Source of the DNA: a virus
Lineage: Duplodnaviria > Caudoviricetes
IMG/VR virus record: IMGVR_UViG_3300046495_000001
Coordinates: 1 to 54,818 of that record
Direction: 5' to 3' (one strand)
Length of the DNA stretch: 54,818 nucleotides
This document shows positions 1,067-52,884 of the stretch, piece after piece. Numbering within the stretch: the stretch's first letter is position 1; each line of letters begins with the position of its first letter. Both the position numbers and the translations under genes were made by a program. Below the pieces are notes generated by a model. It was given only the letters and a program-made list of their open reading frames with translations, was not told where the DNA came from and did no database searches.

Positions 1067-1353
1067 ACATCGAACTGATTGAAGACGCCGCAGTATCCCC
1101 GACCGAACTGCTTGAGCAACTGGGCCTGCTGGACGACGATGCCAAGGGTACGCTGCACCAGATGTCACTGATCATCATCGCTACGCTGCTGTCCAAGACC
1201 GGCACTGTGATTCTGATGTCCGACATCAAGGGTGATGGCGTGGCGAACATCATCGCGGCCGGTAACCCGGCACTGGTGCCCCCGCTGATGTACACGGCAA
1301 GCGAGGCGGCGGACGCTATGTTTAAACGCCCCGAGGGGAGCACACAACAATGA
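1063..1353 (+). CDS. Hypothetical protein
   Basis: ATGA overlaps with both neighbouring genes. Confidence 0.65.
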   Translation: MNIELIEDAAVSPTELLEQLGLLDDDAKGTLHQMSLIIIATLLSKTGTVILMSDIKGDGVANIIAAGNPALVPPLMYTASEAADAMFKRPEGSTQQ

Positions 1354-4277
1354 GCCAACCCTACAAGACAATTTTATGTGTAGACGCCGAAACACGCTGG
1401 AGCAGCAGGCCCACCGATTGGAGCGAAGACCCATTCACGCTGAGCAAGATGACTACGGAAGAATATATCCGCAGCCCACACTTCAAGGCGTTCGGGTTCT
1501 GTATCCATGAGGTGGGTTCGTCGCAGCCGGTGCAGTGGTATCGCCATGAAGAATTGCCCAAGATTCTCGGCATGTACGACTGGACGAAGACCGCTGTGCT
1601 GGCGCACAACGCGCAGTTCGACGTGGGCATCCTGTCCATGATCTATGGCATCGACCCCTGCTTCATCTTCGACACGCTCTCCATGGGGCGTGCGCTGCGT
1701 GGCGTCGAGGTCGGCAACTCCCTGATGAAGCTGGCTGAAGACTACGGACTGCCGCCCAAGGGCAAGGCCGTGTACAGTACCGATGGACTGTACGACATAG
1801 GTATGGCTATCGAGAAGGAACTGGCGGACTACTGCAAGCATGACGTATTCTTGTGTGAAGAGATATTCGCCAACTTCATGCTGCGCATCGACCCCGTTAC
1901 GCGTGAGTCTGCAGGCCCGTACCCCACGAAGGAACTACGCCTGATCGACATGACCGTGCGTATGTACACCGACCCGGTGCTGGAGTTGGATCAGCAGATG
2001 CTGGAGAGGGCGCTGGAAGAAGACAACGGCAAGCTGGCCGCTGCTCTGGAACGTGTGGGCGCGGAGCCGTCGCAGTTGGCGAGCAACGACCAGTTCGCTG
2101 AGATTCTGCAGAAGCTGAGCGTGGAGGTGCCCAAGAAGCCTAGCCCCGCGAACAAGGACAAGATGATCTTCGCCTTCGCCAAGAACGACGCGCTGTTCCA
2201 ACAGATGCTCAACGGTGACAACGAAGACGTGGCGCTCTTGTGCGAGGCGCGACTGAAGGTGAAGTCCAACATGGAGCGCAACCGGGCACAACGCTTCATC
2301 GACATCTCCGAGCGTGGGAACCTGCCGGTGCCACTGTCCTACTACGGTGCCGCCACGGGCCGCTGGACTGCATCGAAGGGCAGCAACATCAACATGCAGA
2401 ACCTGAAGCGTGGCTCCGCGCTGCGCAATGCGATCATGGCACCCGAGCATCATGTGGTTGTGGTGGGCGACTTGTCACAGATCGAGCCGCGTGTGTTGGC
2501 GTGGCTGGCGGGCTACGAGACGATGCTGTCGATCTTCCGCGCAGGTGGTGACCCCTACGCTACCTTCGGCTCTACCATGTTCAGCATTGCAGGTATGACC
2601 AAGGAAAGCCACCCGCTGCTGCGCCAGAGCGCCAAGAGTGCGATGTTGGGTTGTTTTGGTAGCCAAACGCAGGTGTTGACAAAACGGGGGTGGGTTACTA
2701 TACTGGACGTAGCCAAGGAGGATTTACTATGGGACGGAGTGGAGTGGGTAGCGCATCAGGGACTTCTAGCACAGGGGGAGAAGGAGGTACTTACAGCGAT
2801 GGGCGTCAGTGCAACTTCGGGCCACGAAATCCTGACGGAAGCTGGGTGGCAGGAGTGGAGCGCGGCCCTGCGAAAGCCTTCCCTTTTCCAGTCGGCGCTA
2901 TTTTTGGCGAACTTACCTGTCTTGGGTGGGAGCGACAAACGGATAAGCGAGGTAACGGGTGCTACCACCCACGGATGCGCTGCTCTTGCGGATGGGAGGG
3001 TATCGTCCACCGCTCCAATATCAAGCACGGACGTAGTACCCGCTGCCGTAGCTGCGCTTTCAAAGCGTCAATACAAACCCGCTACTACACCAAAGGATAC
3101 TTCGACGCGTGCCCTGACATCAGGCACCGTGATAGGCTACTTGACCGCATCAGCGCGATTGTTGTTCGCTGCACTAACACAAGTAGCCAAACGTATCCAG
3201 ACTACGGTGGCAGAGGTATCACGGTACACCCAGAATGGCTTGCGGATCGGGTCGCGTTCCTACGCTATCTTGTCACCCTTGATGGCTGGGACAAACCACA
3301 GCTTCAGCTTGACCGGACAGACAACAGCAAGGGTTACCAACCGGGCAACCTGCGCTTTGTCACGCGTTCAGTCAACACGGCCAACAAACGCAGGATCACC
3401 GCCCGAGAAGTCGTTGACCTACGACAGCGCATTGCCGCACTTGAAGCAGAGAATGCAGACCTACGACATCGCTATGGCAGGCCCGCGCAATAGGTACACG
3501 ATACTGACTGACGTTGGCCCTATCGTGGTTCACAACTGCGGATACCAGCTCGGGTGGGCGAGCTTCGCTGCGCAGCTTCTGGTGGGTTTCCTCGGTGCCC
3601 CGCCTCAACGCTATACCAAGGCCGATGCCAAGCAGTTGGGCGTGACAGCGCAGGATGTGCTGAAGTTCACCACCAACAAGGGCTATATGGAGAAGATGGC
3701 AGAGATCGCGCACACCTGCACCGAAGACGAGTTGCTGATCCACTGCCTTGCAGCCAAGGCCATCATCGACAAGTACCGGGCTGCAGCCGAGCCGGTGGTG
3801 GACTTCTGGCAGTTCCTTGGTGAGCGTTTGGAGCAGAGTCTGGTGGGCGGCGAAGAGTACAACTACAAGAACGTGCTCATCTTCCGCAAGAACGAGATTG
3901 AGTTGGTCAACGGCATGACGATCCGCTACCCCGACCTGAAGATGCACGTGGACGAGAAAGACCCAAAGAAGCGTGCGATCTACACGTACCAAGACGGCAA
4001 GAAGCGTGTGAAGCTGTACCCCGGCAAGATATGCAACAACGTGACGCAAGGCACAGCGCGCATCATCATGACGGACGGTATGCTGCGTACACAGAAGCGG
4101 TATCGCCCGGTGCTCACAGTGCACGACGAGCAGGGTGTGATCGCACCGCTGGCAGAAGCAAAAGAGGCGAAGAAGTTCCTGTACGACTGCATGGTGCAGG
4201 TTCCCAAGTGGATGCCGGGGATTCCACTGAACGCTGACGTAGGGTTTCATCAACGATATGGAAAGGCTAAGGGATGA
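1350..4277 (+). CDS. polA: Family A DNA polymerase with 3'-5' exonuclease, interrupted by an intein
   Basis: ExoI DAET, ExoII HNAQFD, ExoIII YCKHD, TGRW...NMQN, motif A DLSQIEPR, motif B RQSAKSAMLG|CGY (rejoined after splicing), motif C TVHDE. Confidence 0.95.
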   Translation: MSQPYKTILCVDAETRWSSRPTDWSEDPFTLSKMTTEEYIRSPHFKAFGFCIHEVGSSQPVQWYRHEELPKILGMYDWTKTAVLAHNAQFDVGILSMIYGIDPCFIFDTLSMGRALRGVEVGNSLMKLAEDYGLPPKGKAVYSTDGLYDIGMAIEKELADYCKHDVFLCEEIFANFMLRIDPVTRESAGPYPTKELRLIDMTVRMYTDPVLELDQQMLERALEEDNGKLAAALERVGAEPSQLASNDQFAEILQKLSVEVPKKPSPANKDKMIFAFAKNDALFQQMLNGDNEDVALLCEARLKVKSNMERNRAQRFIDISERGNLPVPLSYYGAATGRWTASKGSNINMQNLKRGSALRNAIMAPEHHVVVVGDLSQIEPRVLAWLAGYETMLSIFRAGGDPYATFGSTMFSIAGMTKESHPLLRQSAKSAMLGCFGSQTQVLTKRGWVTILDVAKEDLLWDGVEWVAHQGLLAQGEKEVLTAMGVSATSGHEILTEAGWQEWSAALRKPSLFQSALFLANLPVLGGSDKRISEVTGATTHGCAALADGRVSSTAPISSTDVVPAAVAALSKRQYKPATTPKDTSTRALTSGTVIGYLTASARLLFAALTQVAKRIQTTVAEVSRYTQNGLRIGSRSYAILSPLMAGTNHSFSLTGQTTARVTNRATCALSRVQSTRPTNAGSPPEKSLTYDSALPHLKQRMQTYDIAMAGPRNRYTILTDVGPIVVHNCGYQLGWASFAAQLLVGFLGAPPQRYTKADAKQLGVTAQDVLKFTTNKGYMEKMAEIAHTCTEDELLIHCLAAKAIIDKYRAAAEPVVDFWQFLGERLEQSLVGGEEYNYKNVLIFRKNEIELVNGMTIRYPDLKMHVDEKDPKKRAIYTYQDGKKRVKLYPGKICNNVTQGTARIIMTDGMLRTQKRYRPVLTVHDEQGVIAPLAEAKEAKKFLYDCMVQVPKWMPGIPLNADVGFHQRYGKAKG
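2676..2721 (+). promoter_or_regulatory. Internal sigma70-type promoter and SD for the out-of-frame endonuclease
   Basis: TTGACA 2676-2681, 17-nt spacer, TATACT 2699-2704, AAGGAGG 2715-2721, ATG 2729 seven nt later. Confidence 0.7.
2729..3493 (+). CDS. HNH-type homing endonuclease nested inside the intein in a different reading frame
   Basis: G-x-x-FGELT, RCSCG...RCRSC Zn motifs, YPDYGGRGITV..W, LDRTDNSKGYQPGNLRFVT...NTANKR, typical of phage HNH endonucleases. The start could instead be GTG 2846 or 2855. Confidence 0.85.
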   Translation: MGRSGVGSASGTSSTGGEGGTYSDGRQCNFGPRNPDGSWVAGVERGPAKAFPFPVGAIFGELTCLGWERQTDKRGNGCYHPRMRCSCGWEGIVHRSNIKHGRSTRCRSCAFKASIQTRYYTKGYFDACPDIRHRDRLLDRISAIVVRCTNTSSQTYPDYGGRGITVHPEWLADRVAFLRYLVTLDGWDKPQLQLDRTDNSKGYQPGNLRFVTRSVNTANKRRITAREVVDLRQRIAALEAENADLRHRYGRPAQ

Positions 4278-13062: not shown

Positions 13063-13270
13063 CAACTTCCCGTGGCATCGCTGCAAGCCGGGGGACTCGT
13101 TCTTCGTCTTGTCGCTTGACCCCACGCGCACAGCCTTCGTGGGGCTGCAGGCAGGGATCAGGGCACTTGGTAGGCGTACCCCCTTGAGTGCACGCCCCGG
13201 CATCTACCAAGGCTGTCTGGGCGTGCTATTTACGCTGCCTGCTTCGCGTCAACAATCTTCAGGTAGTTAG
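13034..13270 (+). CDS. Small hypothetical protein
   Basis: FPW...KPGDSFFV..LD pattern seen in small phage proteins following primases. The GTG start is uncertain. Confidence 0.55.
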   Translation: MASQLTPSRDNFPWHRCKPGDSFFVLSLDPTRTAFVGLQAGIRALGRRTPLSARPGIYQGCLGVLFTLPASRQQSSGS

Positions 13271-16200
13271 CCGCTGCCGCATCCCGGCGCTTGTACAGTT
13301 CTTCGATCTTCTTCTGCTTGCCCGGCCCGTCCAGCGATTTGTCGAGCTTGATCGCTTCTTCCTGACGCTTCATAAACCCCATCTGGTTTTGGAAGGCTCG
13401 TGCTTGTTGCGGCGTACCGTACTGGGCCAACTGCTCTTTGCGGTAGGCTTCGGCCTGCGGCGCGCGCCCGTCTGTCTTCATGGCCTTGATCGTGGCATCC
13501 GTCAGCATGGCATGGTCTACCCGTGTGTACGCATCGTTGACGTTGCGCGACTCCTTCGGGTTGGGCACAAAGCGCGCCAGCAGGGGGTTATCTTTGGCCG
13601 TACCGGTGGCCGCCTCACCCCCATCGTGCGCAGCGCTCTTCGTCTCGAACAGGTGGTTCGTAACCATACCCACCATGTGGGGTAGCTGCCCGAGGTAGGC
13701 GTTGGAGAGGTAGTCAAGCTGTACCGGCGACAGGTTCACGCCCATGTCCACGAGGTGGCGGCTGAACTCTTTCATCATCTCAGGCGTGTTGCCTGCATAC
13801 TTCTCTGTGGTAGCCAGCTTGTCCATGCGCCGCGACTCGATGGGCGACCCGAAGTAGCTGTTGTAGTTACGCGACACATCCACATAGCCCTTGGCGAACT
13901 GCGGCATGATGCTGCCGTTGCCGGGTAGTTGATTGGAGATAACTGCACGCACATCGGCCCAGTCGTTCTCGTTAAAGTTCTGCTTCAACGCGTGGATGAA
14001 AGCTACCGGCAACGAGTAGAACAGCATACCGGTTTCAAATGGTGCCGGTAGCTGCCCCTCTCCTATCTTGATGTTTGACATCTGCGAGCGCAGCGACAGC
14101 TTGCGCCACTCAGGATCATCGTCCAGCGACGCAGCGTAGGCCAGCGAGAGCGCCGTCATGCCGAGTGCACGCTTGAAGAACTTGTTCTTAGTGTCCAGAA
14201 GCTCGTTCGCAGGCATCTTGCCGGTGGCAGATTTAAGCAGCACGTTCAAGCCCTGCACCTGTGCGTTGAAGAACGGGATCAGCCGCGACAGCACCTGCAT
14301 ACTCTGACTGGAGCCGTGCTTGCTAAAGTTTTGCATCTCCTGCGCATGGATCGCCGCTTCCAACTCAGAGCCGCCTGCCTTGATGACATCACGGTATCCT
14401 TGGATACGCGTAGCCGAGTCCGCACCCATGGCGATGTTGTCCAGCTTGGACATCGCGTTTCGATACCATCCTTGGTTCGAGCCGCCCAAGTGCATCAGCA
14501 TCTTCTTAACGTCGTCAGGCGTTCCGTTGAAAACGTTGCTATGCAGAATGCCCATGGCCTCCATATCGAGCGCTTCGGACGACTTACCCGTCAAATGCTC
14601 GCGCATGTTGTTCATACTCTTCACTACTGACGTGAACGGGTCAGCCTTCAGGTTACCCATGATGGCTGCGTTAACCGGGTCTTTCCACATCTGGCTAACC
14701 AGATAGGTAGGTACACGTGTCACGCCCGAGCGCAGGATGTCACTGGCGTACTTGCCCATGTTCAGCAACGCGGGTGTGGACGAGTACGAGCCTGCCACGG
14801 CTTGGGCTAGCAGATCATTGGGGATGTGCTCTGCAGCCGTGCCCTTGGTGTCGATGACGATATGGCGCTCACCATCATCCTGTGCGTTCTGGGGCTTGTC
14901 GCGGAAGCGGATGGTCGTGCCCCCGCGTGCGGCCCCACCATCACCTTCGCGAATCTGCATTGGCTTGGTCTTGCCGGGAACAGTACTTCCGATGCCCTGC
15001 AGGTGATAAGCGATGTGACGTGCAGTCATGTTCTGCACGCCAAGGTTTGTCAGCATGGTCGTATTGCGGAACATCGACTCTTCAAAGGGCATCAACTTGG
15101 CGTTGCCGCCGTTGAGCGCGTGCAGGAACGGGAGCGTACGCACGTCACCCACGGACATGGACTTGCCGTTCTGCATCACCATCTCAAGCGAGTCGCCTTT
15201 GTTGCGGAACATAGGGATGTAGTTGCGATCCTGCATCATCTTGTCGGCTACAGCGTCAGGAACCGCGTTCGTATCCTTCAGGAATTGAACCAACTCCTTG
15301 TTGTACTCGTGATAGGTATCCTGCGCCTTGTTCATGGCCGCGAGCAACGCTGGATCAGACTGCACTTCCTTGATCGCGGCTTCGCCCCGGCGCTGCATCT
15401 CAGCCGGGTTGTCGTAGTCCAGCGTGTGCCAGCCCACGTCGCGTGCGCGCAGGGCGGTCATGTAACCCTGAAACAAATCCATCTTCTCTTCGGCGGTGCC
15501 TTTACCGGGCAGTTCACCGATACGCTGCACCACCTCTTTGGCGTTGGTCTTGCCATCGGCCTTCATGACGGTCAAGCCTTTGGAGTCCTTCGCCAGCTTG
15601 AACCCACCTTTCGTGAACACCGCCATGGCGTTCTGCATGGCGCGGTCGGCCGTCAGTATGTCGCCCATAACCTGCGTACCGGTGTGGTTGTCACCGATCT
15701 TGGCGGTGTAGCGCAGCGCAGCGCGCGAGTCCACAATTTTCTGCTCAGCCGCCATCAGCAGCTTTTTCCAGCCAGCCGCCTTCACGTCCTGCACAACACT
15801 GCGGTTCTGCGACAAGTCACGCCCAAACTTGGCCGTCTCACTGGTGTACTCTTTCTTTGGACGGAAGATGCTGGGGGCTGCTTCGCCCTTGATCTTGTCC
15901 GAGCGGGTGAGAATCTTGTCCACCATGTCACGGGCCTTACCGCTTGGTGACGTGGGGTAGCCAAACATCTGTCGCACAAAGTTTTTGAAGCGCTCCAGCA
16001 ACGACAGCGGTTTGCCAATGGAATCCAGCTTGGCGCGGAACTCAGGGTTGGTGTACACCTCGGCCACGAACTCACGCGCGGATGTCGTGGCGTGCTCGCC
16101 CTGCAGTGTAGGATTGTTCTTGGTGCTATTCCACATGCCTTCCAGCCCCGCACGCGCCTTGCGTTGCTCAGGGTTCAGCTTGGCCGGGTCAGCCAGCATC

Positions 16201-19200
16201 ACGCCGTCAGTTGCAGCGTGTGCACTTTCGTGCAGCAGTTCTTGCTCGGTCAGCCCTTCGGGGTGGACAGCAACGCGGTTCTCTTCAGGGATATAGACAG
16301 CCACCGCCTTCTCGCCACGCACAGTGAAGCGCTCGACACCCACGTCAGTGCGATCCACAAATGGAGCCAAGCGTGTAGCTGCCTCGCGTGCTTCGGGGTC
16401 AGCGCTGGTACGTGCGATGTCGTGCAGTGCGTCGGGCAGCCGGTTCTCTTTGACCGCAGCGATTGCGTCTTCAGACAACGGTGTGCTGGTACGCTCTGCA
16501 CTGGGCTTGTTGGGCGCAGCGTTGGGGTCTTCGATGCGTGCGGACGTATCCACGTCATGGGCTTGCAGTTCTGCAATGTCAGGTGCGTCACCCTCGGCAA
16601 CATCAACCGCGTGCGACCCCGCTTCTGCCACCTTACCAGCGCGCTTCACGCCCTTGTTCAACAGCTTGTCCAATGGTGCGTACTCAGCGTTGAGCTTGGC
16701 TGTGGCCTTATCAAAACGCTCATTGAAGGCTGTGTGCTTTTCAATGGCTGCGGCGTCTTCGTTCTCGATGGCGGCACGCATCTTTTCGTCGTTGATCTTG
16801 CGTAGTTCAGCGATGTGATCCAGCGCTGCATCGATCTCGCGTGCACGTTTCTCAGCGGACGCGTACACACCATCTTCTTGTGCGGTTTTAGAAGTGACAG
16901 AAGCCTTCTTGCGCTGGACGCTGACCTTACCTTGCCCCACACCAATCTTGCGCGTGACCACGCCCCGGCCACCGGCAACCTGCTTGTCGTTGAGTGCTTC
17001 GGCGGCGGCTTCAGCTTCGGTAGTATCTTTCGCACGCACACGCTTACTCACGTTGTCGTCAGCGTTCGTAGTGAACTTCAGCGGCGCTTTGGACTCATCC
17101 CACTTGCCTGCGTTGGCAACGTCTTTGTTCAGCGGCTCGATGGGGGTGATGTCGTCCTTCTCACTCGTCGGCTCACCACGCTGCGTGACACGGCGTGGGG
17201 CTACATCCTCAAGCTGCTGCAGGTTACGCTCTGAGTTCTCAAGCAGTTTCTCCCACTTGCGCAGTCCTTCGTCAGACTTATCCAGCGACCGCGCATCGGC
17301 CAACCGGTTCTTCATCTTGGCGATAGACACCGCAGGCTTCTTGGCAGCGATAGCGTCCTTGATTGCTTTTTCGGACTTGGCCTCGAAGTCAGGGTCGGCG
17401 CGCATCAGGTTTACCAAATCGAGCTTGGCGCGGATACCTGCGGCTTCACGACTCAACCCGATGCGTATGGCGTCAGTGATGCCGCTGTCGCGCGTGACCA
17501 CCGTGGCGGGTAGTTTGGCGAGGCGCTGCATAGCCTCATCCAAATGCATACGCTCTTCGACGGCAGCGTCCATCTCCGCGTTGCGCTTGGCGATCTCGGC
17601 GGCAGTAGCGACGCGTTGTTCCGACTCAGGCGTCTTCACATCCGGGTGCAGTAGACGATCCAGTGCATCCTCTGCATCAGTCTTGGCTCGTGACAGTATG
17701 CGTCCTTGGATGGTATCTTCTTCGGTAGGACTCTTGCCTTCGTCTACACGTGCTTTGAGTTCCTTGTTGAAGTCACGAATACGCTGGTCGGCCGCATCGA
17801 TACGGCGACGCGCAGCAGGGACTTCTGGACTTTCACCTGTCTCGTGTGCATGGCGTGCGCCTTCGGCAGCATCGGCTTCTTCTTGCAGACGCTCGATGCG
17901 TTTGGCACGCTGCACCTTGCCGTTGGTACTGATAGCTGCAGGCTCGGTTTTGGCCGCATCCAGTTTCGCTTGAGCGGTCTTGGCTGCGCGACGCAGTTTA
18001 ACAGTCTCAGGGTCGGTAGGCAGGTTCTGCAGCGCACGTTTGATTAGGTCTAACTGATCACGCATGGCGACAAACGCTGGAGTTTCCTCGCCCTGCTGCT
18101 CCACAAGAAACGCGTTCATCTCCATAGCGAACTTGTTGTATTCCGCAATCTGTGCACGTATAGCAATAGCATCTTCCGGCGTGTACATCTCGCCTTCGCG
18201 CTGTATGGACGCAGGCTTGCCTGTCTTGGGGTCGATATAGCGTGTGCGCTCTTGGCTAGGTACATCTTTAACGGCCGATTCCAGCGTGTTACGGTGCGCC
18301 AGTGCCTCGTCCAGTGCCTTGCGTGCGGCGTTGACACGCCGTGTACGCGCGCCACGTGCTGCGGGGGTATCGGGTGTCTTGGTTGCCTCGACTGCCGCGA
18401 GTGTCGCACGCTTCTCTTCGATCACCTGCTCCGCTTCGCGCACCGCCGCCATATCACGTGTGACCTCTTGACGCGAAAAAACAGTCATGGGCTTGTCGCT
18501 GAACAACTGTGTCCGCTCTGGATTTGGCAGATGGCTTACCAGCGGTTGCCCGTAAAACGGACGACTCTGTACGAACGCTTCGATGCTGTCTTTCACATCG
18601 CGCAACTTCTCAACCAATGCACTGAACCACGAGGGCTTGGCTTTCTCAGGCGTGAACTCTTCTATCTGCGCGCGTGCTGCATCGACCGCTGCGCGGCCTT
18701 CCTTGACTTCGGGCGAATCGGCAAAGGCCGTAGGCGTTTCCTTCGAGTGGCTGGTAGCCATACGATCTGCTTCACCCTTCAGCGCGTGCTCATCGACCTT
18801 GCTCTTCTCACGCTCCTTCTCCAACTTCTCGTTGTCTTCGGATAACTTGCCCCTTTCCGCTTGGTCGCGCTCTGCGTCACGCAATTCACTTAGGACATAG
18901 GTCTTCTTGTTGATTTCGTCCGCACGCTCTTCGTTCGCTGCCTGCTTGTCTTCGATGCGGCCCTGTTCTTGCTGTGCCACTTGCGGATCGAACAGATTGC
19001 GTTGCTTGGCGGCGTTCTCGTCGCCCGAGCGCACTTCACGTGCCAACGCCAGCGCTTCCTTGACCCGGTTAAGGTCGGCATTAGGCAGGGACACACGCTC
19101 GCCGCCGAACAATGCTTTCTGCCAAGACGTACCCCGCACACGCTCGCCGCCCGTGGGCAAACGACCGGTCAACGCTTCACGGATCAGCGGCTCCACTACA

Positions 19201-22200
19201 TCCATCACACCCGTTGTGGGTGACTCTTCCAGCGCATCAAACAGCGGCTTCAGCGCCGCGTTCATGTCCGGGTTAGCGCGGTCTGCTGCGTGCAGCATGT
19301 TGGTAAGGTAACGTGCGCGGCGACCCTGCGGGTTGTTCACATCTGCAGACTCAAGCGCGTCACGTGCCATGGCCCCCGCAGGGCCGTTCACATCTTCCAG
19401 TAGGCGCTCATTGTTGGCGCGCTGATCCGCGCTGGACTTGACCGGCATCGTACCGGCTGCGTCCTCGGGGCGCTGCACACCATCCCACTGGCGCTTGATG
19501 CCCGTGCCTTCGACACGTTTGCCTGAACTTGTCAGCGGCGCACTCGGTATGGTGGCCGCAGGCTTTGCAAGCTCGGCTTGCAGCGCCTTGATGCGATCCT
19601 CAAGTCCCGTTATCGTGGTCTGCAGCTTGGACTGTTGCGCATCGGCAACAGCTTCACCCCACTTAGGTGCGTGCTCGTCTGCAGTCGGTGCAGGGCGATC
19701 CAGTGCACGTAGCTGTCGCACCAACTCCTTGATGCGCGCCTGCATACCGGCGATCTGGCGCGGGATGGCGCTGCGGCGCACTGCGTCTGCCGGGTCAGGT
19801 GAATCTGCACGTTGGGTTTCGCCGCGAATGACACCACGCTCGTTGTGAAACGCCTCTTCCTCTACCGCACGTGCGGGGCCGAACTTCGCCAGTGGGCGAT
19901 CTTCCAGTGCGCGTGAGTCACGCCATTCGGTGACGGCGCTCTTGACGACTTGGCCGCTACGCATCTGGGCAGGCTGCACCACATACTCTTCTAGGAAGTC
20001 ACTACCGCGCTCAGCTTCCACGCGTGTCAGTAGTGCTTCTGCGCGCTCGGTAGCCTGCTTCGCGAAAGCGGTGCGTTCAGCGCTCGTCAGCGGCTGTTGC
20101 CGCCGCGCCTCGCGGCGGATGTTCTCTTCACGGAAGGCCGCACGGATGTACTGCTGCATGGCTTTACGCGCCATACCGCTCAGCTTTGCCGGGGCTGTCT
20201 CGGTGTTCATTGCACCGAGTTGAGCATCGATAGCTTTGAGTTGACGTACGATGTCAACGCGGGAAGTGTGCAGTTCTTCTTCGCCGCGAATGGTGTCAGT
20301 GCCCCCGCGCCGATCTATGCTGGCTAGTACTTTCTGAAGTTCGGCCTGCTTCTCGCGCAGCGCACGCACCATGCCTGATGTGTGTACCTCGTGCGCTGCG
20401 TCAAAGAATGCGGTCAGGAAGTGAGATACATCATTCTTGGCTTTGACCAAGCGGCCTGCGACTGATCCCGGCTCCTTCTGAACTTGCGCCAGTTGGTCGG
20501 CAATCTTCTTGGCTTGCAGGGACGCGGCTTCTACTGCCGGTGCATCGTTGGAAGCGTGTGCACTTTCGCGGTTGTTATTGGCCTTCTCAAGCTGGCGGTG
20601 CAGATCATCGACCTTGGCTACCGTGTCGGCTGTGTGCGGGTTAACCCGTAGGCGCGACTCAAGCTCATTGATGTGAAGCTGCAGCGAGCGTAAGCGCTGC
20701 GTTGATTGCTGCTGCTGCGTCAGTTGCTCTTCGGAAAGATCGGCCTTCGGATCAGCGGTCTTGATCCGTGTGCGTATCGCGTGCAGATCGTTCAGCGTGG
20801 CGGTGTGCTGCGCCTGCTCACGCTTGAGTTCCCGAACCTGCTGCTCCATGGCAGACGCTTCTGGATTGACGATGTTCTCACCAATAGCGTCCACACGCTG
20901 CTTCAACTTCTGGTCGGTCAATTCACCCCATGTCTCAGCGGTGCCGGGTTCGCCTTCCTCTGGCAACGCTTCTTGTGCACGCGGCCCTGCCTGCGCTTCC
21001 TCGCGTAGCGTGGGTGTCGGCAGCTTCAGCTTGCCGCGAATACGGCGCTGCTGTTGTGCAGTCAGCGCGTCGCGGTTCAGTATGCCTTGGGCCTCGCTCG
21101 ACTCCTTTGCCTTCTCGCCCATGCGCTGTAGTGCGTCTGTCTCCGCGCCTACCTTGGCAGTCGTGGCCGCAGTCTGCCCACGCCCGGTCGCCATCTCGTC
21201 CGCGATTCCCGCGTCACGCGCTTGATTCTGCGCAGGAGCGGCGGTTACGTTCTGTTGACCCGTTACACCTGCCTGCTTTTCCTTTATTTGTGCCGCGAGC
21301 TTAGCCATCTTGGCGGTATCGCCCGCCTCGGCTGCATCTTGCAGCTTCTGCTTGAGCTTGGCTACATCGGCGTCAACGGACGGTTTGTGCTGGTTGCGTA
21401 GTTGCTCAACCGCGTCTTGCAATGGCTTCAACTGCTTGGATAGCTCATTTGCCTGTGTGCTATGGCGCATCACTGCATCCATATCCCCCGAAGCGACCGC
21501 TGCTTTAGCCTGATCACGTAGCGTGTTCATGGCGTTCTCATGATCTACCAACGCTTGTGATGCAGTTTGAAGGCGCTGCTCGATGGGTGACACATCCGCT
21601 GGGGCCGCTACGGGCGTACCGCTAGGTGATGTCTGCCCTTCCGCAAACAGGTCGGGTTGTGCATTCTTGTCAAGAGGGGCGACGGTGGTGTCTACCGGGG
21701 CGCTGGCAGTGGGTTGATCTGCACCAGTTTCCAAAGCGCTTTGACTTACCTGTGCGTCTGCGGCAGCCTTGGCTTGATCCTGCGCACGTAATGTGTCAAT
21801 TTCCGGGCGACGGTCGGCGTGTTCTGCAACTAGATTCGCATTGTCCAGCGAAGCCAGTTTCTCATCCAGCGCCTTCTTCTGGTTCTCCCACGCCATGATC
21901 GCGCTGGGATCGCTCTTGTCCGTAGGCTTGGTGCCCAGCGCGGCACGTGCAGCCTGTTGTTGCTGCAGCATCGTCTGATAGTCGGTGTCCAGCTTGCGTA
22001 GATACTCCGGCGTCTGCTTGGCGGCGGCTTGCTGTGCCTCGAAGTCAGCCTTCTGCTGGGCCTTTACCGCGTCGGCATCGGCCTTGGCTTTGTCCGCTTC
22101 AGCCTGCGCACGTGCACGTGCAGGGGCATCCATGGCGACGTGGGCACCACGCAGGACACCGAACGCGGCGGCATTCTCTGCTACTTGTTTGGGATCGAGC

Positions 22201-22868
22201 CATGGAGTGTCTGTCTGGCGGCCCGAGGCTACGTCGATACCCTTGTTGGTAATCTGACTGGCGGTGTCGAACGCCGCGCCTTCACCGGCAGCATGCGCCA
22301 ATTGGGAACCCAGACCTTCACCCGCTTGCAGTGCCTTGGGCAGCGCTTTGCTACCGGCACTGACCAACTTACCGCCCACCATCGCAAAGCCTGCGTTGGC
22401 AAGACCGTGCATGGCGGCAACAGTTGGTGATGCACCTGCGTCAATCTGCTGCTGGTATGAATCACGGAAACCGGGGATGGCAAACAGTGTGCCGTTGGCA
22501 AGCAGCGCCGGGATACCTGCTTCGGGCATTGCAAGGGCGGGGGCCAGACCGCCTACGAGGTTGGCAATCTTTCCGGTGGTTGTATCGCCACCGTGCTGTT
22601 GCTGCCACGCTTCAACGGCTTTGCGCTTGGCGTCTAGGTCGGCTGCAGTGTCTTTGAAGCCCGTGTAATCGGCGGCTGCAGCGGCAGCGCCAAGGCCCAT
22701 GTTAGCCACACCACCGGCAAGACCCGCTCCTGCGGATTCCAGCATACCTGCTTTGGGTGCGAGTTCAGGGTGCTGCGAGATGATGCGCCGCTTCGCCTCA
22801 CTAGGGTCTACTTCATCCGGTATGTTCTGAACAAGGGTTCCGTCAGGTAGCTGGATGGAGTAGGCCAT
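13230..22868 (-). CDS. Giant (3212 aa) internal virion/ejection polyvalent protein
   Basis: Long Ala/Glu/Gln coiled coils, zincin motif LLHESAH...AREFVAE, C-terminal IPFFNAQ.QG and PAPFETG.LF resembling LPD38. Last gene of the late operon. Confidence 0.8.
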   Translation of the reverse strand: MAYSIQLPDGTLVQNIPDEVDPSEAKRRIISQHPELAPKAGMLESAGAGLAGGVANMGLGAAAAAADYTGFKDTAADLDAKRKAVEAWQQQHGGDTTTGKIANLVGGLAPALAMPEAGIPALLANGTLFAIPGFRDSYQQQIDAGASPTVAAMHGLANAGFAMVGGKLVSAGSKALPKALQAGEGLGSQLAHAAGEGAAFDTASQITNKGIDVASGRQTDTPWLDPKQVAENAAAFGVLRGAHVAMDAPARARAQAEADKAKADADAVKAQQKADFEAQQAAAKQTPEYLRKLDTDYQTMLQQQQAARAALGTKPTDKSDPSAIMAWENQKKALDEKLASLDNANLVAEHADRRPEIDTLRAQDQAKAAADAQVSQSALETGADQPTASAPVDTTVAPLDKNAQPDLFAEGQTSPSGTPVAAPADVSPIEQRLQTASQALVDHENAMNTLRDQAKAAVASGDMDAVMRHSTQANELSKQLKPLQDAVEQLRNQHKPSVDADVAKLKQKLQDAAEAGDTAKMAKLAAQIKEKQAGVTGQQNVTAAPAQNQARDAGIADEMATGRGQTAATTAKVGAETDALQRMGEKAKESSEAQGILNRDALTAQQQRRIRGKLKLPTPTLREEAQAGPRAQEALPEEGEPGTAETWGELTDQKLKQRVDAIGENIVNPEASAMEQQVRELKREQAQHTATLNDLHAIRTRIKTADPKADLSEEQLTQQQQSTQRLRSLQLHINELESRLRVNPHTADTVAKVDDLHRQLEKANNNRESAHASNDAPAVEAASLQAKKIADQLAQVQKEPGSVAGRLVKAKNDVSHFLTAFFDAAHEVHTSGMVRALREKQAELQKVLASIDRRGGTDTIRGEEELHTSRVDIVRQLKAIDAQLGAMNTETAPAKLSGMARKAMQQYIRAAFREENIRREARRQQPLTSAERTAFAKQATERAEALLTRVEAERGSDFLEEYVVQPAQMRSGQVVKSAVTEWRDSRALEDRPLAKFGPARAVEEEAFHNERGVIRGETQRADSPDPADAVRRSAIPRQIAGMQARIKELVRQLRALDRPAPTADEHAPKWGEAVADAQQSKLQTTITGLEDRIKALQAELAKPAATIPSAPLTSSGKRVEGTGIKRQWDGVQRPEDAAGTMPVKSSADQRANNERLLEDVNGPAGAMARDALESADVNNPQGRRARYLTNMLHAADRANPDMNAALKPLFDALEESPTTGVMDVVEPLIREALTGRLPTGGERVRGTSWQKALFGGERVSLPNADLNRVKEALALAREVRSGDENAAKQRNLFDPQVAQQEQGRIEDKQAANEERADEINKKTYVLSELRDAERDQAERGKLSEDNEKLEKEREKSKVDEHALKGEADRMATSHSKETPTAFADSPEVKEGRAAVDAARAQIEEFTPEKAKPSWFSALVEKLRDVKDSIEAFVQSRPFYGQPLVSHLPNPERTQLFSDKPMTVFSRQEVTRDMAAVREAEQVIEEKRATLAAVEATKTPDTPAARGARTRRVNAARKALDEALAHRNTLESAVKDVPSQERTRYIDPKTGKPASIQREGEMYTPEDAIAIRAQIAEYNKFAMEMNAFLVEQQGEETPAFVAMRDQLDLIKRALQNLPTDPETVKLRRAAKTAQAKLDAAKTEPAAISTNGKVQRAKRIERLQEEADAAEGARHAHETGESPEVPAARRRIDAADQRIRDFNKELKARVDEGKSPTEEDTIQGRILSRAKTDAEDALDRLLHPDVKTPESEQRVATAAEIAKRNAEMDAAVEERMHLDEAMQRLAKLPATVVTRDSGITDAIRIGLSREAAGIRAKLDLVNLMRADPDFEAKSEKAIKDAIAAKKPAVSIAKMKNRLADARSLDKSDEGLRKWEKLLENSERNLQQLEDVAPRRVTQRGEPTSEKDDITPIEPLNKDVANAGKWDESKAPLKFTTNADDNVSKRVRAKDTTEAEAAAEALNDKQVAGGRGVVTRKIGVGQGKVSVQRKKASVTSKTAQEDGVYASAEKRAREIDAALDHIAELRKINDEKMRAAIENEDAAAIEKHTAFNERFDKATAKLNAEYAPLDKLLNKGVKRAGKVAEAGSHAVDVAEGDAPDIAELQAHDVDTSARIEDPNAAPNKPSAERTSTPLSEDAIAAVKENRLPDALHDIARTSADPEAREAATRLAPFVDRTDVGVERFTVRGEKAVAVYIPEENRVAVHPEGLTEQELLHESAHAATDGVMLADPAKLNPEQRKARAGLEGMWNSTKNNPTLQGEHATTSAREFVAEVYTNPEFRAKLDSIGKPLSLLERFKNFVRQMFGYPTSPSGKARDMVDKILTRSDKIKGEAAPSIFRPKKEYTSETAKFGRDLSQNRSVVQDVKAAGWKKLLMAAEQKIVDSRAALRYTAKIGDNHTGTQVMGDILTADRAMQNAMAVFTKGGFKLAKDSKGLTVMKADGKTNAKEVVQRIGELPGKGTAEEKMDLFQGYMTALRARDVGWHTLDYDNPAEMQRRGEAAIKEVQSDPALLAAMNKAQDTYHEYNKELVQFLKDTNAVPDAVADKMMQDRNYIPMFRNKGDSLEMVMQNGKSMSVGDVRTLPFLHALNGGNAKLMPFEESMFRNTTMLTNLGVQNMTARHIAYHLQGIGSTVPGKTKPMQIREGDGGAARGGTTIRFRDKPQNAQDDGERHIVIDTKGTAAEHIPNDLLAQAVAGSYSSTPALLNMGKYASDILRSGVTRVPTYLVSQMWKDPVNAAIMGNLKADPFTSVVKSMNNMREHLTGKSSEALDMEAMGILHSNVFNGTPDDVKKMLMHLGGSNQGWYRNAMSKLDNIAMGADSATRIQGYRDVIKAGGSELEAAIHAQEMQNFSKHGSSQSMQVLSRLIPFFNAQVQGLNVLLKSATGKMPANELLDTKNKFFKRALGMTALSLAYAASLDDDPEWRKLSLRSQMSNIKIGEGQLPAPFETGMLFYSLPVAFIHALKQNFNENDWADVRAVISNQLPGNGSIMPQFAKGYVDVSRNYNSYFGSPIESRRMDKLATTEKYAGNTPEMMKEFSRHLVDMGVNLSPVQLDYLSNAYLGQLPHMVGMVTNHLFETKSAAHDGGEAATGTAKDNPLLARFVPNPKESRNVNDAYTRVDHAMLTDATIKAMKTDGRAPQAEAYRKEQLAQYGTPQQARAFQNQMGFMKRQEEAIKLDKSLDGPGKQKKIEELYKRRDAAAANYLKIVDAKQAA

Positions 22869-43115: not shown

Positions 43116-43703
43116 TTAGAAGTCCATCTTGTTGGACTTCTTAAGGTTCTCTTCGCGGGTCATCACCTGCAAGTTCCACGGTACATGCATCCCGCAAACC
43201 AGCGGGTGGCGCAGCGGCACAATGTGATCGACGACATAGGGTGTACCTGTGGTCTTGGTAAGCTGCATTGCCATGCGGTACATCTCTCGCATGTTGGCCT
43301 TATCTTCTACCGTTAACCACGCGGGGGATGCGTCGCGGTGCTTGCGACGGCGGTTCTTGCGGTCGGCCGTTATATGCGCGGGGTGCGTGTCTTTCCATTG
43401 CTTCTTGTACCGATTCTTGTCTTCCTGTGGGCGCGCAACCGCGCGTGCGATGACTAACTCCTTATTGCGTTCGTAGTAGTCCTGTTTGGCTTTAAGCCCC
43501 GCAGCGGACTTGTTGTACGACTCAAAATACGCTTTGCGTTTCTCCTGCGATGCGACCCATTCCAAGTGCAGGCAATCTAGGCACGCTCCTTTTGTCTTAC
43601 GTGGAGCGATGTGCCCGTGCTTGCACGGCTGCCCAGTAAAGTAATACGGTAGCCCCAAAGCTACAGCCTCTTTCCTAGTCTCTGGTAGTCCTATGGTATC
43701 CAT
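43116..43703 (-). CDS. Free-standing HNH homing endonuclease
   Basis: YFTG.PCKHGH...CLDC N-terminus, VDHIVPL...VCGMHVPWNLQV....N..KSN. Confidence 0.9.
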   Translation of the reverse strand: MDTIGLPETRKEAVALGLPYYFTGQPCKHGHIAPRKTKGACLDCLHLEWVASQEKRKAYFESYNKSAAGLKAKQDYYERNKELVIARAVARPQEDKNRYKKQWKDTHPAHITADRKNRRRKHRDASPAWLTVEDKANMREMYRMAMQLTKTTGTPYVVDHIVPLRHPLVCGMHVPWNLQVMTREENLKKSNKMDF

Positions 43704-43744: not shown

Positions 43745-43773
43745 AAAAAAAGGCCCACCGAAGTGGGCCTTTT
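43745..43773 (-). terminator. Rho-independent terminator after the major capsid gene
   Basis: GGCCCAC-TTCG-GTGGGCC followed by T7. Confidence 0.9.
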
Positions 43774-43792
43774 CGAGTTTTTCACTAATTTC

Positions 43793-52203: not shown

Positions 52204-52466
52204 CTCTTGGTCGCCCGATTCGTTTTCGGGTCGTACTTGAAATAGCTTGTGGGCAGCCCTGTGCGTTTGGCTTCCCGGTCTTTGGCGCGCTCGGCTGCGG
52301 TCATCGCGTTGCGGGCGGCACCCTCCTTCGTCCACGTGCCTTGAGGTGTCATGTGGCCTCGTTTGATCAGGATGGCCTTGGCCTCTTCCTTGGAGCCGAC
52401 TTGGGCTGCCAGCCTGTCCAGCATCTGGCCTGCGCCCATGAAAGCCTGCGTTGACTGCTTAACCAC
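52200..52466 (-). CDS. Hypothetical protein
   Basis: RL..QVG...A..IL.KRGH...MTA.ERA.DR...Y...TNRAT. Confidence 0.65.
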   Translation of the reverse strand: MVKQSTQAFMGAGQMLDRLAAQVGSKEEAKAILIKRGHMTPQGTWTKEGAARNAMTAAERAKDREAKRTGLPTSYFKYDPKTNRATKR

Positions 52467-52884
52467 GGCGTGCGAGCCCCCAACCCCTGCGCTTCACAAG
52501 GCCGCCTTTGCGGTAGCTTGGCATCCCGGTGTCATCCGTAAGGGAAGAAGAGTAGGGGTCGCTCCCAACGGCATCCATAGGGTCAGCCACGGCCGGTCGG
52601 CGTGAGGCTGCGGGGGTAACGGGGGCGTTGGCTGTAGCGGGGTCGGTAGCATCGCTGGGCGGATTAAAGGGGGCTGCCGGGGGCGTTGTCAAAGGTTGTC
52701 TCTGCCCCGATGAGGGTGACGGTGGCATCGATGCGGGCTGCGCTCCACGGCTCAGCGCCCCCCGCATGAACTTCTGCCGTGGCAAGTTCGGTGGTGCCGG
52801 AGGCTTCACGTTGCGCGTCTTTAGCGCCACGGTTGACGTAGGTGGTGGGGGTGCCGCCTTCGGGGCTTTGAGATTGCTGCTCAT
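52459..52884 (-). CDS. Pro-rich protein ending in the GG/RGWG motif
   Basis: C-terminus YRKGGLVKRRGWGLARRG. Confidence 0.6.
   Translation of the reverse strand: MSSNLKAPKAAPPPPTSTVALKTRNVKPPAPPNLPRQKFMRGALSRGAQPASMPPSPSSGQRQPLTTPPAAPFNPPSDATDPATANAPVTPAASRRPAVADPMDAVGSDPYSSSLTDDTGMPSYRKGGLVKRRGWGLARRG

Follow-up and report, generated by a model that had tools for sequence, protein, structure and literature searches.

A candidate sigma-70-type promoter within the splicing-domain codons of a phage polA intein that nests an out-of-frame nuclease gene

Introduction

The intron-encoded endonucleases of phage T4 have their own promoters within the transcription unit of the interrupted host gene, in non-coding intron sequence, according to the portion of the published account used here (PMC2988022). 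Nucleases nested out of frame in inteins were described in 2025-26 (bioRxiv 10.1101/2025.01.02.630785; bioRxiv 10.64898/2026.09.14.751524, both in the text available), and an account of hidden HNH genes, in its accessible sections, asks how such genes are translated, finds no ribosome-binding site (RBS) and proposes leaderless initiation at GTG (PMC11855218). As far as the available texts go, published work on nucleases hidden in inteins or host open reading frames (ORFs) asks how they are expressed or mentions only possible Shine-Dalgarno (SD) motifs. Here we analyse a phage genome fragment, the IMG/VR virus record IMGVR_UViG_3300046495_000001 (54,818 bp, completeness estimate ~78%; the whole stretch is called the window below), in which a DNA polymerase gene, polA, carries an intein and the intein region in turn carries an HNH-like endonuclease gene in the −1 frame. 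We propose, with a probability of roughly 70%, that a sigma-70-type promoter is overprinted on the intein codons, is kept by selection, and would make the nested nuclease gene a transcription unit of its own.

By analogy, the T4 intron endonucleases are the closest working analogue of this arrangement. The likeness, as far as the T4 account available to us extends, consists of an endonuclease gene with its own promoter embedded in the transcription unit of the host gene, a consensus SD about 8 nt before the AUG, and uncoupled expression. The same part of that account also marks the difference: T4 uses middle and late phage promoters in intron RNA, together with an RBS-sequestering hairpin and autorepression, whereas the motif in the window is of sigma-70 type and lies over coding intein codons.

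Results

Layout of the intein locus

The initial annotation of the window had noted, within intein codons, the series TTGACA, 17 nt, TATACT, AAGGAGG, 7 nt and an ATG in the endonuclease frame, as well as a second AAGGAGG at 2781. All of these are present in the letters, the second AAGGAGG at 2781-2787. The features that define the locus are listed below, with the evidence for each in brackets; offsets, here and throughout, are counted from the first base of the Cys1 codon of the intein (2652 = offset 0).

1350..4277, plus strand: polA-type (family-A) DNA polymerase precursor ORF, 975 aa (Pfam DNA_pol_A, E 1.1e-21; phrog_17 DNA polymerase, E 1.9e-64)
2652..3536, plus strand: class-1-type intein, 295 aa, from Cys1 to ...VVHN, then Cys+1 (boundaries, termini of relatives, structure model, Foldseek)
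2652..2927, plus strand: N-terminal splicing region, intein residues 1-92, containing the putative promoter, the 5' untranslated region and the first 66 codons of the nested ORF (structure model)
2676..2681, plus strand: −35 hexamer TTGACA, the Leu-Thr codons of an invariant V-L-T (letters; TTGACN in 56/63 relatives)
2699..2704, plus strand: −10 hexamer TATACT, from acT ATA CTg (Thr-Ile-Leu), after a 17-nt spacer at 2682-2698 (letters; TATNNT in 51/63 relatives, first T in 55/63)
2711, plus strand: predicted transcription start, an A 7 nt past the −10 hexamer, at about offset 59 (promoter geometry)
2715..2721, plus strand: Shine-Dalgarno sequence AAGGAGG, from Lys-Glu-Asp codons, lineage-specific (anti-SD duplex of −11.4 kcal/mol)
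2729..3493, plus strand: nested HNH-like endonuclease ORF in the −1 frame, 254 aa from ATG 2729 to the stop TAG 3491-3493, overlapping both splicing regions (ORF call, PHROG, relatives, structure model)

Read in the polA/intein frame, the codons from 2676 onwards spell L T K R G W V T I L D V A K E D L L W and belong to block A, while the open frame that contains ATG 2729 is the ORF 2690..3493. The two hexamers match the sigma-70 consensus at 6/6 and 5/6 positions across the 17-nt spacer, with T1, A2 and T6 of the −10 hexamer all present; an extended −10 TG is absent from the window motif. The two-frame layout is not an assembly error, since DNA contigs from two other public runs are identical to the window over 2600-3032 and 2738-3469, without insertions or deletions. 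Among the public runs listed for 2300-3700, no RNA run contains the stretch.

Codon choice at the hexamers is conserved across related inteins

A search of IMG/VR for relatives confirmed 521 of 556 candidate stretches, and the comparison uses the best 80 of these 521. Together with the window this gives 81 sequences, of which three begin within the intein and a fourth is too close to the end of its contig; removal of near-duplicates (≤ 10 differences in 210 nt) reduced the remaining 77 to 63, with nested ORFs that are 40-68% identical. In this alignment the −35 hexamer occupies offsets 24-29 and the −10 hexamer offsets 47-52, the latter being made up of the last base of a variable codon, the Ile codon and the opening two bases of a Val/Ile/Leu codon.

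The Leu codon of the −35 hexamer is TTG in 56/63 sequences, whereas TTG accounts for 14% of 3929 Leu codons in the corresponding exteins. Similarly, the variable codon before Ile ends in T in 55/63, and it does so over Pro, Arg, Asp, Ser, Ala, Asn and Thr (CCT in 31/32 Pro, CGT in 7/8 Arg, GAT in 6/6 Asp, TCT/AGT in 6/7 Ser and GCT in 3/4 Ala codons), while T-ending codons make up 17-30% of the codons for these amino acids in the exteins. Ordinary third positions hold 0.0-0.3 bits of information, as opposed to 1.41 bits at offset 26 and 1.35 bits at offset 47, and a perfect TTGACA-17-TATAAT occurs in four loci of the 63-sequence set (five in the full listing). When changes were counted on a tree made from the sequence downstream of the region, the 45 third positions between −58 and 74 had a median of 22 changes, with 6 at offset 26, the fewest, and 8 at offset 47; apart from offset 26, only a Trp codon changed less often than the latter. 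No other degenerate third positions evolve as slowly as these two, and the weakly informative final base of the −35 hexamer had 21 changes. Shared ancestry therefore does not account for the pattern. Sigma-70 promoters are most informative at the TTG and at T1, A2 and T6 of the −10 hexamer, and the apparent constraint on the aligned inteins mirrors this, falling at the promoter positions that matter most to sigma-70.

Synonymous resampling with the codon usage of each locus gave an expected match of 7.31/12, compared to an observed mean of 9.94/12, with P ≤ 0.05 in 46/63 loci; hexamer conservation exceeds the demands of coding. The result was replicated in window-subtype inteins from metagenome contigs, where 7/7 have TTGACN and the scores are 9-11. 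Metagenome contigs gave more than 579 loci in all, of which the best 80 were covered. Scores below 9/12 are found in L006 and L079 (both 6/12, and both with a strong GGAGG SD), in L078, and in L081, the sole locus with a truncated nuclease ORF.

As controls, we considered 23 homologous inteins of other subtypes that retain V-L-T and Ile, including inteins from a second polA site whose nested HNH relative occupies the +1 frame. Among the 23, TTG is found in 6/23 and T at offset 47 in 9/23, the mean match is 6.4/12, and the −10 place mostly reads TATAGA or worse; no recurrent promoter-like site was found between −60 and +260. A further intein, the in-frame LAGLIDADG-like one of L059, reads CTGACA/CTCGAC. 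The initial annotation had suggested asking whether synonymous positions in these elements are constrained only in inteins that carry the out-of-frame gene. The constraint at the free positions is present in the 63 inteins of the window subtype and lacking in the 23 of other subtypes, though the latter also have nested HNH relatives. The further idea that one stretch serves as intein code, promoter, RBS and start of a second protein divides into two: the hexamers are kept at synonymous and amino-acid-free positions, in favour of the promoter part, while the AAGGAGG with ATG 2729 is not a family feature (4/63).

The motif in the context of the window

A window-wide scan returned 13 promoter-like sites, a total below that of shuffled sequences, of which the site at 2676 scores 11/12 and every other 9/12. 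If the rule requiring A2 and T6 is dropped, one further 11/12 site appears, on the minus strand near 52691. This site (52662-52691) consists of TTGACA, 18 nt and TTTAAT, with no A at −10 position 2 and a very GC-rich spacer, lies inside the minus-strand ORF 52459..52884, and is probably a chance match. The promoter match at 2676, taken alone, is not significant in this window and could be chance. What places the site above chance is that it lies 25 nt upstream of a perfect SD and the ATG of a real nested gene, and that it is conserved in relatives.

Two forms of regulation known from T4 I-TevI were considered and rejected for this region. An RBS-sequestering hairpin finds no support, as the predicted leader 2711-2790 (z +1.23) and the longer segment 2645-2790 (z −0.05) fold no more stably than their shuffles. 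An operator resembling the homing site is not supported either, as modelled intein-free junctions are no more similar to the promoter region than shuffles are (mean z 0.36, with 4/62 above 2 and the window at 0.17).

The start codon of the nested gene turns over

Several starts are available in the nuclease frame downstream of ATG 2729, alongside a second SD-like string:

2744..2746, plus strand: GTG at family offset 92, a start used or usable in most relatives, with ATG/GTG in 61/63 (alignment of relatives)
2781..2787, plus strand: second AAGGAGG, from a conserved Glu-Lys-Glu, with no HNH-frame start after it in the window (letters)
2846..2857, plus strand: GTG 2846 and GTG 2855 (offsets 194 and 203), alternative starts (ORF list, relatives)

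In the window, AAGGAGG is followed after 7 nt (2722-2728) by the ATG at 2729-2731, an SD-led start whose anti-SD pairing is the strongest among all candidate starts in the 63 loci and which is the first start on the predicted transcript. The ATG at offset 77 (2729 in the window) has the best pairing in 4/63 loci. Counted from offset 60 onwards, the long ORF has its first start at offset 77 in 28/63, at offset 92 in another 28/63, and at 116, 134, 137 or 203 in 7/63. In 13 loci a stop directly follows ATG 77, so the start must be 92, and offset 98 is another usable position in relatives. The purine-rich string equivalent to 2781-2787 precedes an ATG at offset 137 in 4 relatives, and offset 203 is the first possible start in two, L022 and L023, which have ATG there and a stop ending at offset 202. 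All candidate starts fall between the predicted transcription start (~offset 59) and the folded domain, which begins at residue ~51 (offset ~227). Judging from the alignment, the putative promoter is fixed while the start codon turns over among relatives. The start used in the window would be ATG 2729, with GTG 2744, 2846 and 2855 as alternatives.

The intein

The remainder of the intein divides into two segments:

2928..3428, plus strand: intein residues 93-259, which in the polA frame are the out-of-frame read of the HNH gene and are predicted to be disordered (pLDDT 31-44)
3429..3536, plus strand: C-terminal splicing region, intein residues 260-295 (termini of relatives, structure model)

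The intein breaks polA between ...SAMLG and C and ends with ...VVHN before the next C (3536/3537); 62/63 relatives share the same termini, with HN followed by C, and L074 has ...VVSN followed by C. It has the hallmarks of a class 1 intein, namely an N-terminal Cys1 (2652) and a C-terminal His-Asn followed by the Cys of the C-extein, as well as the Thr-x-x-His of block B, in which T55 and H58 are invariant among 51 aligned inteins and the window reads T-S-G-H. A Pfam scan returned no intein family at E ≤ 0.01. Predicted folding in the polA frame is limited to residues 1-92 and 260-295 (pLDDT 91-98), and the joined splicing regions match mini-inteins in Foldseek, with 6frg as the best match (E 3.8e-4) followed by 6qaz and 6riy, all at prob 1.00. 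The polA precursor frame (1350..4277) is uninterrupted across the intein. In 80/80 related loci no stop interrupts it across the nested ORF, over 425-1331 codons, and the third frame is closed. That the window intein undergoes protein splicing we infer from the conservation of its catalytic residues and from the open polA frame in these 80 loci. Because that frame is open throughout and 2928-3428 is predicted to be disordered, the intein would work as a mini-intein with a 167-residue linker that needs only to be free of stops.

The insertion is found at the same polA site in related viral loci. Among the 20 closest judgeable polA relatives (L195-L216, from a C-extein search), 18 are intein-free at this site and 2 carry the intein; the two most similar by C-extein (69% and 74% identity) are intein-free. 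Such a sporadic distribution, as far as sequence comparison can tell, fits mobility. More broadly, a profile of the intein N-domain finds 3301 representative proteins at E ≤ 0.001, and many polA proteins hold two such inteins.

A few relatives depart from the common form. The inteins of L022 and L023 have 364 residues, compared to 277-298 in the others. The polA gene of L059 has an additional intein with an in-frame LAGLIDADG-like middle (~1712-2900), upstream of the one that nests the HNH gene. A second polA site (L068 4169-5300; L082-L097; L218, which is APSE-1) is occupied by a related subtype, C-[IL]-A-x-G-T ... P-I-E, whose nested HNH-like gene is a different one and lies in the +1 frame. 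Both subtypes occur together in some polA genes, and the second-site subtype is without conserved promoter-like hexamers.

The nested nuclease

The nested ORF matches three PHROG families labelled HNH endonuclease (phrog_374, E 6.1e-33, residues 56-223; phrog_2081, E 3.5e-21; phrog_3377, E 1.4e-20), while no Pfam family and no PDB sequence profile matched at E ≤ 0.01. Its structure model has a mean pLDDT of 82.8, with residues 1-27 disordered and a confident fold from about residue 51. Foldseek found nothing in the PDB at E ≤ 0.001. The model contains a Tudor/CarD-like barrel (Z 6.0, middling), and residues 116-221 resemble the HNH nuclease PacI (Z 5.5, rmsd 3.5, 87 aligned, likewise middling). 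The motif at residues 193-221 reads L-D-R-x-D-N ... G-N-L-R-F ... N, with D195, R196, N207 and N219 invariant in 64 sequences; this motif may represent a variant active site or an inactive nuclease. The nucleases of APSE-1 and of the second-site polA inteins likewise read L-D-R.

A search of the protein collection yielded 182 relatives of the nested protein at E ≤ 0.001, and the nested ORF is present in 166 named phage records (145 Salmonella, 11 Escherichia and others, largely Jerseyvirus). Cultured E. coli phages are among the carriers of the same intein subtype. The family probably has hundreds of members in public viral contigs, including Jerseyvirus phages of Salmonella and E. coli. Most of the 166 records annotate only a 'DNA polymerase' or an intein 'encoding splicing domains', and few have 'endonuclease' or 'HNH endonuclease'.

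The surrounding genome record

The large terminase of the window is about 44% identical to that of phages of the Pelagibacter phage HTVC023P type, and a megablast of the window polA found 0 near-identical phage records. With regard to the host, genome contigs gave 16 loci, mostly on small contigs of metagenome-assembled genomes plus one Morganella prophage, too few for naming one. No phage-encoded RNA polymerase was recognised among the 55 ORFs or among 10 large ORFs scanned against Pfam, in a record that is ~78% complete. One of the large genes, a 3212-residue ORF on the minus strand (13230-22868), is without a PHROG match at E ≤ 1e-5, and the one domain recognised in it is an LPD38 close to the C-terminus (E 7.9e-20). 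Besides the nested gene, a free-standing nuclease-like ORF lies at 43116-43703 on the minus strand (phrog_1035 endonuclease VII, E 1.1e-12; phrog_26577) and adjoins a strong bidirectional terminator-like hairpin at 43747-43774.

Discussion

What the analysis establishes is the presence of the motifs, the layout in two frames, the folds and, throughout the family, selection on those free positions that are critical to a promoter. The comparison of relatives makes independent transcription of the nested nuclease, from a putative promoter inside the intein codons, well supported, and from the same data we infer that the motif fires as a promoter and where transcription would start. It is also rather probable, in our judgement, that the whole polA intein family keeps a consensus sigma-70 promoter on its catalytic N-terminal splicing domain through purifying selection on synonymous and amino-acid-free positions, such that one stretch of ~56 nt would encode intein protein, act as a promoter with its 5' leader, and open the nuclease gene.

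The mechanism would be as follows. The homing nuclease of the mobile intein in polA would be a separate gene in the −1 frame, with TTGACA-17 nt-TATACT lying over block-A codons in the N-terminal splicing domain. Transcription by the host RNA polymerase would begin near A2711 and produce an 18-nt leader with AAGGAGG 7 nt before ATG 2729. Such a transcript should receive no upstream polA-frame ribosomes, and for this reason the nuclease ORF could be translated independently of polA expression. The first ~50 residues of the nuclease would form a disordered extension over intein codons, and it is because of this disorder that relatives could shift the start codon while retaining the promoter. The suggestion in the initial annotation that the nuclease could be expressed independently of polA and without frameshifting fits the hexamer conservation, which a working promoter of this kind would predict, and slippery heptamers are found in 2/63 loci and not in the window.

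Several observations weigh against this proposal. A site scoring 11/12 has an expectation of 0.205 per window, and 18.5% of 200 first-order Markov simulations contain at least one. No other near-consensus sigma-70 site is present in the 54.8 kb, which leaves use of the consensus by this phage and its host a presumption. Most of the hexamer bases (9/12) are set by conserved intein residues (V-L-T, Ile and a hydrophobic residue); the selection argument consequently rests on three free positions, namely Leu positions 1 and 3 and the T before Ile. The motif is also weaker in the cultured enterobacterial relatives, for which the consensus can be taken for granted, with TTAACC-17-TATTAT (9/12) in Salmonella phage Ent1 and a still poorer match, TTAACA and a weak −10, in the Morganella prophage. 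The start at ATG 2729 lacks conservation support, as a GGAGG-type SD at that position is found in 4/63 loci only (the window, L006, L024 and L079). Finally, no invariant His is found at the nuclease motif in 64 sequences, and catalytic activity is not assured.

Some of these points feed alternative explanations. The nuclease might be translated only by SD-driven internal initiation on the long polA mRNA, the promoter-like string being unused as a promoter and its conserved bases having another role or none. The SD and its spacing in the window are optimal for this, and L006 and L079 (both 6/12) have lost the hexamers but retain both the nuclease ORF, intact, and a GGAGG SD for the same ATG, so that promoter-free expression seems possible; strong SD and promoter loss indeed co-occur (2/4 compared to 2/59, one-sided Fisher ~0.02 by hand calculation). 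We nevertheless regard this explanation as unlikely, since it leaves unexplained the TTG in 56/63, the T in 55/63, and their lack in the control inteins. Moreover, the SDs of most relatives are weak (−6 to −8 kcal/mol) and would compete with polA-frame ribosomes. One could also speculate that the string is a functionless by-product of the block-A codons (Val-Leu-Thr ... Ile-Val/Leu), given that conserved residues set 9/12 hexamer positions, that resampled sequences reach 7.3/12, and that a window this long may contain such a site by chance. This is already disfavoured, and quite improbable in our view: the free positions are the slowest degenerate third positions, codon choice there is far from extein usage, and the codons are mixed in homologous inteins that share the V-L-T and Ile residues.

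A promoter that is real could instead have been selected for transcription of the replication genes downstream and of the 3' part of polA, with the nuclease as a passenger. The plus strand has no terminator-like site before 5929 (none between 3493 and 5929), and read-through into the exonuclease and helicase genes is plausible. However, the promoter travels with a mobile intein that is missing from 18/20 of the closest judgeable polA relatives, where the downstream genes are expressed without it, and the hexamers are lost in L081, where the nuclease ORF is truncated; we consider such a role very unlikely. For the same reason, namely that most of the closest polA relatives lack the intein, the downstream exonuclease and helicase genes cannot depend on this promoter, and the earlier suggestion that it might drive them is not supported beyond possible read-through. 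Lastly, programmed −1 ribosomal frameshifting could fuse the nuclease to the N-extein and the intein N-domain, as the nuclease frame is −1 relative to polA and is open far upstream in some relatives. Canonical X XXY YYZ heptamers, however, occur in only 2/63 loci, in different places and with no recurrent position, and are absent from the window; nuclease-frame stops end at offsets 62-203 in 35/63 loci, in many relatives just upstream of the start; and no unusually stable RNA structure lies near the start. We therefore reject frameshifting, which appears extremely improbable.

If the proposed promoter is real, a self-contained transcription unit would travel with the mobile element, and host polymerase could fire it whatever the expression programme of the phage. 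This would give a direct answer to how nucleases hidden inside inteins are expressed, a question left open by the 2025 literature, in the form of a concrete, testable mechanism: a promoter in splicing-domain codons that is kept by codon choice. It would also provide an example of DNA read three ways, with selection measurable at single synonymous sites, and explain how the start codon can drift while the element stays mobile. In practical terms, synonymous recoding of inteins in biotechnology could create or destroy internal promoters, and annotations of Jerseyvirus and related phages mostly label this intein as being without a nuclease.

A search of the full-text literature, with most subscription journals and bioRxiv supplements outside its scope, found no description of a promoter inside intein coding sequence. 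The overprinted promoter in intein codons appears to be new, while the nested out-of-frame nuclease is already known. The non-canonical inteins of actinobacteriophages (bioRxiv 10.1101/2025.01.02.630785) are alike in having an unstructured in-frame middle and a nuclease in another frame of the same strand, with DNA polymerase among the hosts. They differ in that the nuclease is endonuclease VII-like and in that the available text describes no expression signal and does not contain the word 'promoter'. The intein of bioRxiv 10.64898/2026.09.14.751524 shares the out-of-frame nuclease, there under purifying selection and with putative SD motifs upstream of the start, but has a LAGLIDADG nuclease and a cellular host gene, the word 'promoter' again being absent from the accessible text. 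In the ShiLan domain, or hidden HNH, of mycobacteriophage methylases (PMC11855218), an HNH gene likewise lies in another frame of an uninterrupted host ORF; here there is no intein splicing domain, and 'promoter' does not occur in the part of the text at hand.

Among named relatives, Salmonella phage vB_SenS-Ent1 (HE775250.1, L098; Jerseyvirus) agrees with the window in intein subtype, in the polA site and in the nested ORF beneath, and differs in a record that speaks only of an intein 'encoding splicing domains', in reading TTAACC/TATTAT, and in starting at an ATG at offset 92 with GGAG. Hamiltonella phage APSE-1 (P45/P46, NC_000935.1) also has an 'HNH endonuclease' coding sequence nested in its polymerase coding sequence; its intein, however, shares the subtype of the controls (C-L-A-K-G-T ... 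P-I-E): the nuclease is read in the +1 frame, and TATAGA takes the −10 place. The fractured genes with split inteins of Dassa et al. 2009 (PMC2677866) resemble the window locus, in the sections available, in that the two halves of the intein flank an independent endonuclease gene, which has control elements of its own and short overlaps of coding sequence. In those same sections the host gene is divided into two ORFs and the 5' region of the endonuclease is non-coding, with hairpins and late-promoter elements, whereas in the window the host frame is continuous and the putative control elements lie inside codons.

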